A model generated the notes under the pieces. The model was not told where the DNA came from. It saw nothing but the letters and a program-made list of their open reading frames with translations, and made no database searches. Of a DNA stretch of 64,000 bases, positions 8,053 through 55,156 are shown one piece after another; the stretch's first letter is position 1, and each line of letters begins with the position of its first letter. This DNA is from Candidatus Brennerbacteria bacterium (lineage in GTDB: Bacteria > Patescibacteriota > Minisyncoccia > UBA6257 > GWB1-50-10), in contig JACPEK010000006.1 in the NCBI GenBank assembly GCA_016183535.1, forward strand, positions 38,015-102,014, in the 5' to 3' direction. A program made the translations under genes and the position numbers.

Positions 8053-8552
8053 GTGCGAAACCGTTCACTCTGGAAGGCGGAGTGGAATCGGCCCGTAGAC
8101 AAACGCCGCCGCTCGAACAGGACAAACGCCGCGATCCCAACAACCATATTCATGACGAGCGAGAGTCCGATCGCTAAAAAATCAATTTCCCCTTTTCCGA
8201 GAAAACCGCCAGCGGCCGCCACAACAGTGCCGAGGGCAAGCAATATCGAAAAATCGGAAAGCCGGTTTCCGGTAAGGAGCGGCGCCGCCCATATGAGAAG
8301 AAGCCATATGAACCCCGCGGCGGCGGCCGTAAGCACCCAAAACGGCGCCATGAAAAACGCGAGGATGAATAGCGCGAACGCGAGAAACCCCGCGAACCAC
8401 CGCGCGCCGAAGAACGCGACAAGTAGCATAAGAATGAATGTCGCAAAAATTCCCGCGCCCCCCGCGCGGAACGCACCGGAGAGCTCCAAAAAAAACGCCA
8501 CGGCGAATCCGGCAGTGAGCCATGCGTAGTGATGGATCGGAACGTGCGGCAT
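8049..8552 (-). CDS. mreD: rod shape-determining protein MreD (polytopic membrane protein)
   Basis: 167-aa hydrophobic protein between mreC and pbp2, with 4-nt overlaps on both sides. Confidence 0.55.
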   Translation of the reverse strand: MPHVPIHHYAWLTAGFAVAFFLELSGAFRAGGAGIFATFILMLLVAFFGARWFAGFLAFALFILAFFMAPFWVLTAAAAGFIWLLLIWAAPLLTGNRLSDFSILLALGTVVAAAGGFLGKGEIDFLAIGLSLVMNMVVGIAAFVLFERRRLSTGRFHSAFQSERFRT

Positions 8553-34845: not shown

Positions 34846-35286
34846 ATGAAAACGAAATTTTTCCTTTCCTCCTTCAGCTTCTTCATGATAATTATCTTCG
34901 TATCATTCGGGGTAATTATCGTTCCTTCTATCGTTTCCGTTTCTCCCTACCATTTCTATCCGGCGGCGGCGGTAGGCGTCGCGTCGGTCGTAACATTCTT
35001 CACGACCGACATTTTTGACTTTGAGAACGGGCGTATTTCCATCCTCTCAAAGCGAGGGTGGAAGTTCATTCTGTGGTTCGCGATTCTCGTTTCATTCGGA
35101 ACACTCGCCACGACCGGCAACGTTACCGATCGCCTCACGGCGCACGCTGCGTGGATATTCACCGTGATAATCTCAATAATATTTGGGATTTTCACGGGCG
35201 CTTTCCTCCGCGGCATTTTAGAGGCAATCCTTTGGGCCGCAAGGCTCGTAGGGATCGTCAAGCATCAGGACGATCGCCCCTCATAG
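34846..35286 (+). CDS. small polytopic membrane protein, hypothetical; low GC relative to its surroundings
   Basis: Strong RBS (aggaggcgcaaATG), four hydrophobic helices, A/T-rich codons, followed by a textbook terminator. Confidence 0.5.
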   Translation: MKTKFFLSSFSFFMIIIFVSFGVIIVPSIVSVSPYHFYPAAAVGVASVVTFFTTDIFDFENGRISILSKRGWKFILWFAILVSFGTLATTGNVTDRLTAHAAWIFTVIISIIFGIFTGAFLRGILEAILWAARLVGIVKHQDDRPS

Positions 35287-35292
35287 ATATTT

Positions 35293-35324
35293 AAGCCCGA
35301 CGCATTTGTGCGTCGGGCTTTTTC
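35293..35324 (+). terminator. rho-independent terminator
   Basis: aagcccgacgca-tttg-tgcgtcgggctt followed by ttttc. Confidence 0.75.
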
Positions 35325-35366
35325 GTGCCGGAAAGGTATTTATTTGCTCCTCTTGCGTTCCGGCAC

Positions 35367-35397
35367 GAAAAACAAAAGCATCGCTTGCGCGATGCTT
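35367..35397 (-). terminator. rho-independent terminator on the minus strand, downstream of the tRNA-like element
   Basis: aagcatcgc-ttgc-gcgatgctt; on the minus strand it is followed by TTTTGTTTTT. Confidence 0.55.
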
Positions 35398-35405
35398 AAT
35401 GATAG

Positions 35406-35546
35406 TGCCGGAAGGGGGATTCGAACCCCCGATTCCGGGAAAGCTTTAGAATGCGGAACGCAAAGGTGTTACCCCTCGCGTTCCTCCCTCATAGGCCCCA
35501 GATCCACCGGGCGACTGCAGGACCGCCGCAGGCGCCGCTTTCCGGC
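35406..35546 (-). ncRNA. atypical tRNA-like element: canonical T-arm (GGGGG-TTCGAAT-CCCCC), acceptor 3' strand TTCCGGC plus discriminator A; the only matching 5' strand (GCCGGAA) lies 141 nt upstream
   Basis: No 75-90 nt cloverleaf can be drawn. CCGGAA directly 5' of the T-stem also pairs with TTCCGG, giving a minihelix. Extra copies of the acceptor segment occur at 35327-35336 and 35361-35370. The class (intron-containing tRNA, tRNA remnant/att site, or other tRNA-like RNA) is unresolved. Confidence 0.3.
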
Positions 35547-35552
35547 GAAAAA

Positions 35553-35783
35553 CTACAATATAAAACTGAACAAACCAGGACCTTGGGCAGGACCTTGGGA
35601 TCGAGAAGACTTTCTTGCTGTCGGCTTCTTTTTTAAGATGCCGACAACTTCAAGATTGGTGCTGCCGCATTTGGGGCATCTTTGCTCATGCGTGTCGGCA
35701 TCTATCGCCTCATGAGCGGTTCCCATCCACGCGAGTCCGGGAGGAAAGCAGTCCCGGCACCGCAATTTTAAACCTCTAGACAT
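35553..35783 (-). CDS. small zinc-ribbon protein (CRDC...CPKC)
   Basis: 76 aa. Two CxxC pairs 28 residues apart; basic C-terminal tail. Confidence 0.4.
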   Translation of the reverse strand: MSRGLKLRCRDCFPPGLAWMGTAHEAIDADTHEQRCPKCGSTNLEVVGILKKKPTARKSSRSQGPAQGPGLFSFIL

Positions 35784-35893
35784 TTGAGACCCCTTTTTGT
35801 TTTGAAATGAACGTTTCTGTGAGAGACATTATCACACTTTCAGAAAAAGTCAAATCAAAACCCCGCAGAAATTCCGCGGGGCAAAACACCGGA

Positions 35894-36082
35894 TTATACA
35901 CGAGCTTGGCAAAATACTGGTCTTCGCAGTTGCGCGGCGGAGAACATTCTAGCCGCTTTCTTCGCGTTCGCACGCTTCGTAAGTGGGGTAAGCGTGTCGA
36001 TGCGCGAGCAATTGGGACAACTGTGGTTCTCGGTTTGATAGCCGGGCACCACAAACCCGCACTCGGTACAGCCGTATTTCAT
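35894..36082 (-). CDS. small zinc-ribbon protein (CTEC...CPNC)
   Basis: ORF trimmed to MKYGCTECGFVVPGYQTENHSCPNCSRID..., preceded by an AGGAGGG RBS. 62 aa. Confidence 0.5.
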   Translation of the reverse strand: MKYGCTECGFVVPGYQTENHSCPNCSRIDTLTPLTKRANAKKAARMFSAAQLRRPVFCQARV

Positions 36083-36373
36083 ACGGCTCCCTCCTTTTTG
36101 GTTTGAAAATTCCTGCCCCCGACAGGTACCGCGGGAAAAGATAACACGCGGCGCCGGAAATGGCAATTTTTATTTCCCTCTTTGCTAAAATGGCGGAAGC
36201 CCGACAAAATGTCGGGCTTCCACTCGCGGCGCGGAGACGCCTCACTCACCCCCACGCGAAAGGGCACCGTTTCCGATGCTCTTCGTTTTCTATTGTATCA
36301 AATCGGCTCCTCCCCGCCACTCGACACTTATCCACAAGAAAATTTCTCCTCGATCAGGCTACCCGCCTGAAAA

Positions 36374-54817: not shown

Positions 54818-55069
54818 GGTACGGTTTTATTGTACAAAAACGATTCGATAATTCCGACTTTATTTGGAACATCTGCTAAAAAGCGCGGAGAGGGGTGGCG
54901 CTCAAGATATTCTGTACGTCTTCCCATCCCGTCGGAAATGCAAAGTTATAACGTGCCGGTACCGCAAATACATAGCGCGCATTACGACCCAGTTCGCTGG
55001 AGTTGACCGGAGCGGCGCCGATATGGAATCAGGAGTGGTTTCAACTAAATCACTTTCTCCCGCACAAAG

Positions 55070-55156
55070 CGGAAGGGGCGAGATTCGAACTCGCGAGAGG
55101 ATTTCTCCCCTACAGTCTTTCCAGGACTGCGCCTTAGACCACTCGGCCACCCTTCC
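55070..55156 (-). tRNA. tRNA-Ser (anticodon GGA), class II with a long variable arm; CCA not encoded
   Basis: Folded by hand: acceptor GGAAGGG/CCCTTCC, D-arm GCCGAGTGGTCTAAGGC, anticodon loop CTGGAAA, variable arm TAGGGGAGAAATCCTCT, T-arm GCGAG-TTCGAAT-CTCGC, discriminator G. Confidence 0.85.

Follow-up and report, generated by a model that had tools for sequence, protein, structure and literature searches.

A 141-nt tRNA-like element lies directly behind the gene for a small zinc-ribbon protein, ZnR1, in the 64,000-nt stretch of DNA analysed here (the window), and comparison with a sister Parcubacteria species points to purifying selection on its acceptor stem and T-arm. The reading that we favor, and to which we give about an even chance, is that of a gene for a non-decoding tRNA-like RNA which derives from a tRNA-Thr and in which selection keeps only the acceptor/T-arm top half. 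An earlier note on this DNA had named three candidates, namely a tRNA containing an intron or insertion, a tRNA 3'-half left as an att-site scar, and a novel tRNA-like RNA. The last of these is the best supported, in the modest form of a tRNA-Thr-derived pseudo-tRNA or tRNA-like RNA.

Anatomy of the Element

The features of the locus are listed below.

35828..35853, minus strand: promoter-like site TTGACT ... TGTGATAAT upstream of ZnR1, read from the sequence and conserved in the sister species (locus L010)
35553..35783, minus strand: ORF of ZnR1, a 76-aa orphan zinc-ribbon protein, upstream cistron of the predicted transcription unit
35406..35546, minus strand: tRNA-like element of 141 nt with acceptor stem, two expanded arms, T-arm and discriminator A (sequence and fold)
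35540..35546, minus strand: acceptor 5' strand GCCGGAA, beginning 6 nt past the ZnR1 stop codon
35510..35536, minus strand: 5' arm at the D-arm position, a 3-bp stem GGC/GCC around the hairpin CUGCGG-CGGUC-CUGCAG (predicted fold)
35431..35504, minus strand: central arm at the anticodon-arm position, stem CUGGG/CCCGG around a 57-nt window-specific insertion (predicted fold)
35484-35455, minus strand: 12-bp hairpin inside the 57-nt insertion (predicted fold)
35414..35430, minus strand: T-arm GGGGG-UUCGAAU-CCCCC with G53-C61 and the T54..A58 pattern kept (sequence)
35413-35407 and 35406, minus strand: acceptor 3' strand TTCCGGC and discriminator A (sequence)
35366..35397, minus strand: intrinsic terminator AAGCAUCGC-GCAA-GCGAUGCUU with U-run, directly 3' of the element (hairpin 35397-35376)
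35319..35372, minus strand: window-specific 54-nt palindrome (UUUUUCGUGCCGGAA, 24 nt, UUCCGGCACGAAAAA) with perfect 15-nt arms
35293..35320, bidirectional: terminator hairpin shared with the convergent membrane-protein gene
34846-35286, plus strand: convergent membrane-protein gene, 146 aa
33445-34743: UvrC gene, whose product puts the window among Patescibacteria/Parcubacteria, close to Jorgensenbacteria and Brennerbacteria

The earlier note had described a T-arm GGGGG-TTCGAAT-CCCCC followed by TTCCGGC-A on the minus strand, and the sequence carries both at 35430-35406. The 5' partner GCCGGAA likewise lies where it had been placed, 6 nt past the stop codon of the zinc-ribbon ORF (TAG at 35555-35553, then TTTTTC), which leaves a 6-nt leader, UUUUUC, between ZnR1 and the element. 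The two acceptor strands (35546-35540 with 35413-35407) form the 7-bp stem GCCGGAA/UUCCGGC with ensemble pairing probabilities of 0.79-1.00, and 109 nt separate GCCGGAA from the T-arm. The minimum free energy structure of the window element is a four-way junction of -73.2 kcal/mol (z=-3.6 when compared to shuffles), in which the arm at the D position consists of a 3-bp stem with a 6-bp hairpin inside it. The 57-nt insertion occurs a single time within the window. No CCA is encoded at the 3' end of the element; the bona fide tRNA-Ser of the window likewise lacks an encoded CCA.

With regard to canonical tRNA features, the window element has the 7-bp acceptor stem with discriminator, and both it and L010 have a T-arm with a 5-bp stem, a 7-nt UUCRANY loop and G53-C61. 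A D-arm with a 7-11-nt loop carrying G18-G19 is not found in the window element, the D position being occupied by a 27-nt stem-hairpin without a GG loop, and an anticodon arm with a 5-bp stem, a 7-nt loop, U33 and purine 37 is missing as well, since 57 nt lie between CUGGG and CCCGG. Over the whole window, ARAGORN called only a tRNA-Ser(GGA) at 55069-55156 and neither a tRNA nor a tmRNA at the element. The same tRNA-Ser (55070-55156) was the sole match to Rfam at gathering score in the window, and at E<=10 no other tRNA match appeared. At the locus itself, no tRNA or tmRNA reached gathering score; sub-threshold matches to beta_tmRNA (12.2 bits) and tmRNA_permuted (10.4 bits) cover only the T-arm part, and the thresholds amount to 47-84 bits for tmRNA models and to 29 bits for canonical tRNA (RF00005). 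Both of these checks had been suggested in the earlier note, and neither finds a normal tRNA at the locus; together with the missing D-arm and anticodon-arm features, they bear out its view that no canonical cloverleaf can be drawn.

A further proposal, that CCGGAA immediately 5' of the T-stem pairs with the acceptor 3' strand to form a local minihelix, is not supported. The hexamer at 35437-35432 does complement the 3' strand, yet its pairing probability is 0.00 in the ensemble; the local minihelix is still not formed when the first 10 nt are blocked, and it is imperfect in the orthologue.

How often such an arrangement arises by chance was estimated with a descriptor, a T-arm plus a 7-bp acceptor partner 40-175 nt upstream, which was counted in shuffled windows and occurred 0.175 times per shuffled window. 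By itself, the pattern in a single window is therefore only suggestive of more than chance. It is because an orthologous locus was found in L010 that the tRNA-like element can be considered more than a chance pattern.

The Orthologous Locus and Selection on the Core

The orthologue, 102 nt at positions 8760-8861 of L010, belongs to the sister Parcubacteria species and starts 10 nt after the ZnR1 stop codon, compared to 6 nt in the window. A second locus, L011, is a strain variant of L010 (99.3% identical). L010 and L011 have the gene order of the window, that is a 509-aa protein, ZnR2, a terminator, the promoter, ZnR1, the element and a terminator, followed beyond this terminator by the convergent membrane protein and then uvrC. 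The L010 organism is the closest relative, its UvrC being 70% identical to that of the window. For ZnR1, exactly one homologue was encountered among 5.8e9 proteins (P0122, 60% identity, on L010), and an exhaustive ZnR1 profile search of 1.84e9 representatives gave no further family members. In the N-terminal 44 residues of ZnR1, 41/44 are identical between window and L010, yet fourfold degenerate sites are only 28% identical.

Seven further relatives, with UvrC at 63-70% identity, keep the synteny of uvrC, FAD-oxidase, SecDF and sigma factor, yet at their uvrC loci there are no ZnR genes, no element and no tRNA. The element and a tRNA are equally absent from three loci that encode homologues of the 507-aa protein found next to the module. 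The module of ZnR genes and element is therefore confined to a small lineage. Among the genome contigs scanned (GCCGGAA, 97-127 nt, T-arm plus acceptor), only ordinary tRNA-Thr(CGU) and tRNA-Leu(CAA) genes with a chance upstream GCCGGAA were found; metagenome contigs scanned for the local-minihelix signature gave one chance match, inside a coding region, and scans of viral contigs gave no homologue. These contigs did contain a non-canonical phage tRNA that has this acceptor but is unrelated to the element.

Between the window and L010, fourfold degenerate sites are saturated, with 68/189 identical (36%), and the proteins of the locus are 26-63% identical. The acceptor strands are identical at 14/14 positions and the T-arm at 13/17; for the whole core of acceptor, T-arm and discriminator the count is 27/32 (binomial P=2.5e-8 against 36% neutral identity). 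GCCGGAA is the same in the window, L010 and L011. The T-arm of L010 reads GCGGG-UUCGAGC-CCCGC, so that one T-stem pair, 50:64, has changed from G-C to C-G in a compensatory manner, and the T54-A58 pattern is kept. The discriminator is A in the window and G in L010, which argues against a conserved aminoacylation identity. In the interior, defined as the part between the 5' acceptor strand and the T-arm, the similarity of window and L010 is at shuffle level, being equalled or exceeded in 332/1000 shuffles with global and in 663/1000 with local alignment. Given a conserved core and an interior that behaves like shuffles, selection would act on the acceptor/T-arm half only, and it is purifying selection on the core that this comparison of sequences indicates.

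Folded separately, the copies of the two species arrive at a four-way junction of the same layout, with an acceptor pairing probability of about 1.0; for L010, the stability of the fold does not significantly exceed that of shuffles (z=-1.2). The covariation comes from two species and three sequences and comprises one compensatory T-stem pair as well as D-stem changes, the latter aligned by hand, and a MAFFT/RNAalifold result for the three sequences was left out as the 5' acceptor strand had been misaligned. A ThrRS mimic, suggested by motifs of the interior (UGGAUCU, CGGCRGUCCYG and a Thr-like NGU in the pentaloop), was considered and rejected, the interior not being above shuffles; the CGGCRGTCCYG motif is expected by chance.

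The alternative that survives best, though we consider it unlikely, is a non-functional tRNA-Thr pseudogene decaying by insertions, the likeness of its top half being due to gene conversion or to slow decay of GC-rich stems. Such a relic would agree with the absence of a canonical cloverleaf, the randomised interior, the differing discriminator, the junk-like extra duplication in the window copy (see below) and the very narrow distribution, with uvrC loci of relatives at 63-70% UvrC identity devoid of the element. Gene conversion by the genuine tRNA-Thr gene of each genome could in principle conserve the top half, but in each of the two lineages it would have to act on two separate short tracts, one of 7 nt and one of 25 nt. 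Moreover, with neutral sites saturated (36% identity), 27/32 positions of the core are kept, the distal 5' strand of 7 nt among them, one T-stem pair has changed on both sides, and the location directly after the ZnR1 stop and inside a promoter-terminator unit is conserved as well.

Descent From tRNA-Thr

The L010 copy is the more informative about the origin of the element. Its 5' part reads GCCGGAA UA ACUC AAUGG(27-nt hairpin)GUA GAGC G CUGGG GAUCGGUU UCCAG and its 3' part, after UCCAG, AAGGUU GCGGG UUCGAGC CCCGC UUCCGGC G. The phage-database matches that cover this copy best are annotated as tRNA-Thr. Without the 27-nt D-loop insert, it aligns end to end with the tRNA-Thr(UGU) of phage D3 and also, over the full length, with proteobacterial tRNA-Thr(CGU), in which the acceptor GCCGGAA/UUCCGGC recurs. 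Like canonical bacterial tRNA-Thr, the element has a canonical T-arm, and the L010 copy can be aligned with it over the full length in its U8-A9, D-stem, AAGGUU variable loop and overall order. In contrast to it, the D-loop holds a 27-nt hairpin in L010 or is replaced by a hairpin in the window, the anticodon loop is degenerate with 8 nt in L010 or amounts to 57 nt in the window, and the copies stay below every detector threshold; against the Rfam tRNA model the L010 copy scores 15.8 bits in a wrong register, below the required 29, and ARAGORN finds no tRNA in it.

At the D position of L010, a 3-bp stem CUC/GAG surrounds a 10-bp hairpin with the loop CAGUC, and a C-to-U variant in L011 restores the A10-U25 pair of the D-stem. 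The anticodon loop of L010 consists of the 8 nt GAUCGGUU closed by CUGGG/UCCAG, or of 6 nt if the stem is drawn longer, and the positions of the Thr anticodon are no longer present. Judged from these alignments, the element descends from a tRNA-Thr gene that gained insertions, and the window copy is more derived than the L010 copy, the inserts differing between the species in position and in size (27 nt in L010 and 57 nt in the window).

That the element is instead a true tRNA that decodes, whether it keeps unusual expansions or has its inserts removed after transcription by some unknown route, strikes us as improbable. Deletion of the 27-nt D-loop hairpin turns L010 into a 75-nt, near-canonical tRNA-Thr-like cloverleaf, the acceptor, T-arm, U8-A9 and variable loop are tRNA-like, and a missing CCA is shared with the bona fide tRNA-Ser. 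However, after this in-silico excision L010 still retains an anticodon loop of 8 nt (GAUCGGUU) or 6 nt, and ARAGORN leaves the anticodon undefined. The window copy would need at least two excisions; among about 7000 single deletions examined with ARAGORN none was convincing, and the calls that it did make show stems with mismatches and arbitrary anticodons. Also, inserts at different positions and of different sizes in the two species, as well as an Rfam search that at gathering score detects only the tRNA-Ser in the window, speak against decoding, and we know of no bacterial enzyme that excises short tRNA inserts. The working tRNA with intron or insertion that the earlier note had considered is thus not supported, with no single deletion giving a credible cloverleaf and with a degenerate anticodon loop in both species. 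An intron of the group I or bulge-helix-bulge type was rejected, the inserts measuring 27 and 57 nt and Rfam returning at the locus only weak, sub-threshold matches to unrelated families. The element, we infer, has lost its decoding function.

Predicted Transcription and Processing

A predicted promoter and a predicted terminator bracket ZnR1 and the element. Conservation of the promoter-like site was assessed in the alignment of the window with L010 (columns 604-630), and the closest terminator upstream of the element is at 35882-35860, after ZnR2. The earlier note had placed terminators on both sides of the element; both hairpins concerned (35397-35376 and 35320-35293) lie 3' of it. Since the conserved promoter-like site and the terminator enclose ZnR1 together with the element, the two are probably co-transcribed, and on this basis the element is predicted to be expressed as a tRNA-like RNA.

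Under the mechanism that we propose for such a non-decoding RNA, constraint on the D and anticodon regions would have been lifted and insertions would have accumulated there, giving rise to the D-loop hairpin in both species and to the further 57 nt that replace the anticodon loop in the window. The ZnR1 promoter would drive the element as the 3' part of the ZnR1 transcript, which would end at the intrinsic terminator. RNase P would cut 6 nt after the ZnR1 stop codon, RNase Z would trim the 3' end after A35406, and the CCA-adding enzyme would add CCA. As an outcome, a stable, tRNA-shaped but non-decoding RNA would be freed and the ZnR1 mRNA would be stripped of its terminator hairpin. We infer this processing because the acceptor/T-arm minihelix is the recognition unit of these enzymes; RNase P, RNase Z and the CCA-adding enzyme recognise a 7-bp acceptor stem stacked on the T-arm. 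An acceptor stem of 7 bp counts among the main determinants of RNase P cleavage, and one tRNA-like Y RNA has been found to be cut by RNase P and to acquire CCA (PMC4201824). The recruitment of pseudo-tRNAs to non-translational roles is also known (PMC3399842).

Downstream of processing, the element might control the stability of the ZnR1 mRNA or act in trans as a minihelix RNA. A more far-reaching idea, which we put forward as doubtful, is that element and ZnR1 constitute an undescribed bacterial module in which the tRNA top half alone is functional, whether it controls the ZnR1 mRNA as a tRNA-like 3' tail or a processing signal, or is set free as a minihelix RNA and acts with ZnR1. In the released-minihelix variant, the RNA would form an RNP with ZnR1 or would serve as a CCA-tailed or aminoacylated carrier outside translation. 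If expressed and processed, the element would be a natural case of selection on the acceptor/T-arm minihelix at a time when the decoding half drifts and expands. If true, this would have implications for the 'two-halves' view of tRNA origin and for the recruitment of pseudo-tRNAs to new roles, and the candidate phyla radiation, which has been little studied, would provide a candidate for a bacterial mRNA that ends in a tRNA-like module. Genes of this kind escape the standard tRNA finders. As a relic only, the element would be a minor curiosity of one Parcubacteria lineage.

It is also conceivable, with a low probability in our estimation, that the element is not released but acts in cis in the 3'-UTR, with RNase Z and CCA addition creating a tRNA-like 3' terminus on the ZnR1 mRNA, by analogy with the tRNA-like structures of plant viruses, through which the stability or translation of this mRNA would be controlled. 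In its favor, U is the usual base at position -1 of RNase P substrates, and the element has C or G there, not U; its 5' strand begins only 6-10 nt past the stop codon in both species, and it is situated between ORF and terminator. To our knowledge, a tRNA-tailed mRNA has no bacterial precedent. Against retention on the mRNA, a 7-bp acceptor stem next to a single-stranded, U-rich leader should be a good RNase P substrate (principle: PMC4201824).

Comparison With Known tRNA-Like RNAs

With the tRNA-like domain of tmRNA, the element shares acceptor and T-arm and a long helix instead of an anticodon arm. tmRNA carries the alanine identity pair G3-U70. A tmRNA was rejected here, as the element has C3-G70 rather than G3-U70, lacks a tag reading frame and pseudoknots, comprises only 141 nt, and is negative in ARAGORN and Rfam. 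tRNA-like processing signals are represented by mitochondrial tRNA punctuation, the mascRNA of MALAT1 and the 3' tRNA-like structures of plant viruses. As in these cases, a tRNA-shaped module directly follows a coding or long transcript, where end-processing enzymes could set the ends; unlike them, which are eukaryotic, organellar or viral, the present element is bacterial and its processing is a prediction. We know of no established bacterial mRNA 3' module of this type, and a literature search on tRNA-like RNAs in Patescibacteria gave no papers.

A pseudo-tRNA recruited to a non-translational role, as in the case of tRNA-Other of Bacillus cereus, is the nearest concept in the literature (PMC3399842). 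Like the element, tRNA-Other is tRNA-derived, misses canonical features, is unlikely to function in translation and is located next to variable genome regions, but it retains a cloverleaf, and its anticodon serves in T-box regulation (PMC3399842), whereas in our element the anticodon region is unconserved, conservation is limited to the acceptor/T half, and co-transcription after a protein gene is predicted. [quoted passage not shown] In contrast, YrlA is linked to rsr (PMC4201824), the ends of the element form the acceptor stem, and no family of the Ro/TROVE type (rsr) was found among the neighbours scanned. Identity with YrlA was rejected, the topology being different, with termini that pair as an acceptor stem, and Rfam showing nothing YrlA-like at the locus at E<=10.

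Extra Acceptor Copies and the Palindrome

Extra copies of the acceptor segment had been reported in the earlier note and do exist, at coordinates shifted by 3 nt, namely cgtgccggaa at 35367-35358 and ttccggcacg at 35333-35324. They are the inner parts of the palindrome arms (35372-35358 and 35333-35319). The palindrome repeats the 5' flank of the element with its 5' strand, GUUUUUCG(UG)CCGGAA, and also its 3' end, CCYUUCCGGCAC, and TTCCGGCAC occurs twice in the window, 80 nt apart.

tRNA-Thr 3' ends are classic phage attachment sites, and the copies might be taken for an att-site scar or recombination hotspot, in which a mobile element that brought the ZnR and membrane-protein genes next to uvrC duplicated a tRNA 3' end. 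The block of ZnR2, ZnR1, element and membrane protein is missing upstream of uvrC in other relatives, TTCCGGCAC is repeated at a distance of 80 nt, and tRNA-Thr matches exist in temperate Pseudomonas phages; nevertheless, we regard a scar, which the earlier note had listed, as very unlikely, given that it would retain the 3' part only and here the 5' strand is present and conserved, that the repeats are missing in L010 and L011, that on the uvrC side the genes belong to the core genome and show synteny with relatives, that no integrase, phage or defence family was found among the neighbours examined, and that purifying selection (core 27/32 against 36% neutral identity) is not expected of it. 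Comparisons of the neighbouring proteins with Pfam, NCBIfam, PHROGs and PADLOC yielded generic zinc-ribbon noise only.

The idea that the 57-nt insert is a mobile palindrome was likewise discarded; the insert has a 13-nt match with 2 mismatches to the palindrome loop, which by rough estimate is about what chance would give. The palindrome is absent in L010 and L011, and a functional relevance of the duplicated acceptor segments is not supported, these copies being specific to the window. Judged from its sequence, the palindrome is probably an internally collapsed second copy that arose by tandem duplication in the window lineage and has no conserved function.

A conserved structured RNA upstream of ZnR2

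Comparison of the window with L010, the orthologous locus in a sister Parcubacteria species, revealed conserved elements on the minus strand at and upstream of the second zinc-ribbon gene, ZnR2.

36187-36285, minus strand (L010 7958-8062): structured RNA of about 100 nt
~36105-36127, minus strand (L010 ~8155-8175): second conserved hairpin (ACCUGUCGGGGGCAGG), with a U-run 3' of it
35894-36082, minus strand (L010 8204-8398): ZnR2, a 62-aa CxxC...CPNC zinc-ribbon ORF

The structured RNA is preceded by a conserved -10 box, TGnTACAAT (36297-36292), and contains three hairpins, the last of which is a terminator with a U-run. Its 63-nt core (sequence UGCCCUUUCGCGUGGGGGUGAGUGAGGCGUCYCCGCGCCGCGAGUGGRAGCCC) is near-identical in the two species, between which neutral sites are saturated, and the two-species comparison showed compensatory changes in hairpins 1 and 3. 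Fold z-scores of -4.7 and -4.4 were obtained, and no matching family was found in Rfam. We consider this RNA a candidate for a new sRNA or leader, and it may be under stronger constraint than the tRNA-like element that follows ZnR1. The separate hairpin at ~36105-36127, with its U-run, lies directly 5' of the ZnR2 ribosome-binding site and could be an attenuator.

Zinc-ribbon genes near uvrC

ZnR2 has a strong ribosome-binding site (AGGAGG) and was missed by gene callers in public assemblies; at locus L004, a 99-aa ORF on the opposite strand was called in its place. In another relative, whose UvrC is 63% identical, a different 82-aa zinc-ribbon ORF (CxxC...CPEC; L018 699-947) is found between uvrC and the gene for the small membrane protein. 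This variable spot seems to host small zinc-ribbon genes repeatedly.

ZnR1 (35553-35783) is an extreme orphan: among 5.8e9 proteins a single cluster is homologous to it, and 1.84e9 representatives searched exhaustively yielded no further homologues. Its N-terminal 44 residues are highly conserved between the window species and the L010 species (41/44 identical). The 3' part of the coding region carries a perfect tandem duplication:

35576-35599, plus strand: 12-nt sequence CAGGACCTTGGG, present twice

In the protein, this duplication accounts for the repeat QGPAQGP in the C-terminal tail. The tail is variable and terminates in GP-x-LFS, a motif also kept in the homologue.

A phage tRNA-like gene with the same acceptor

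Two IMG/VR phage contigs carry, within a large tRNA array (accompanied by a tmRNA in L021), a 91-nt tRNA-like gene (L020 4733-4823; L021 6802-6892) that is overlooked by ARAGORN. The gene scores only 21 bits against Rfam tRNA-Sec. Its anticodon loop reads CUUAUAA, its variable arm is long, and the CCA is encoded. Its acceptor, GCCGGAA/UUCCGGC, is shared with the tRNA-like element that follows ZnR1. The interior of the phage gene is unrelated to that element.
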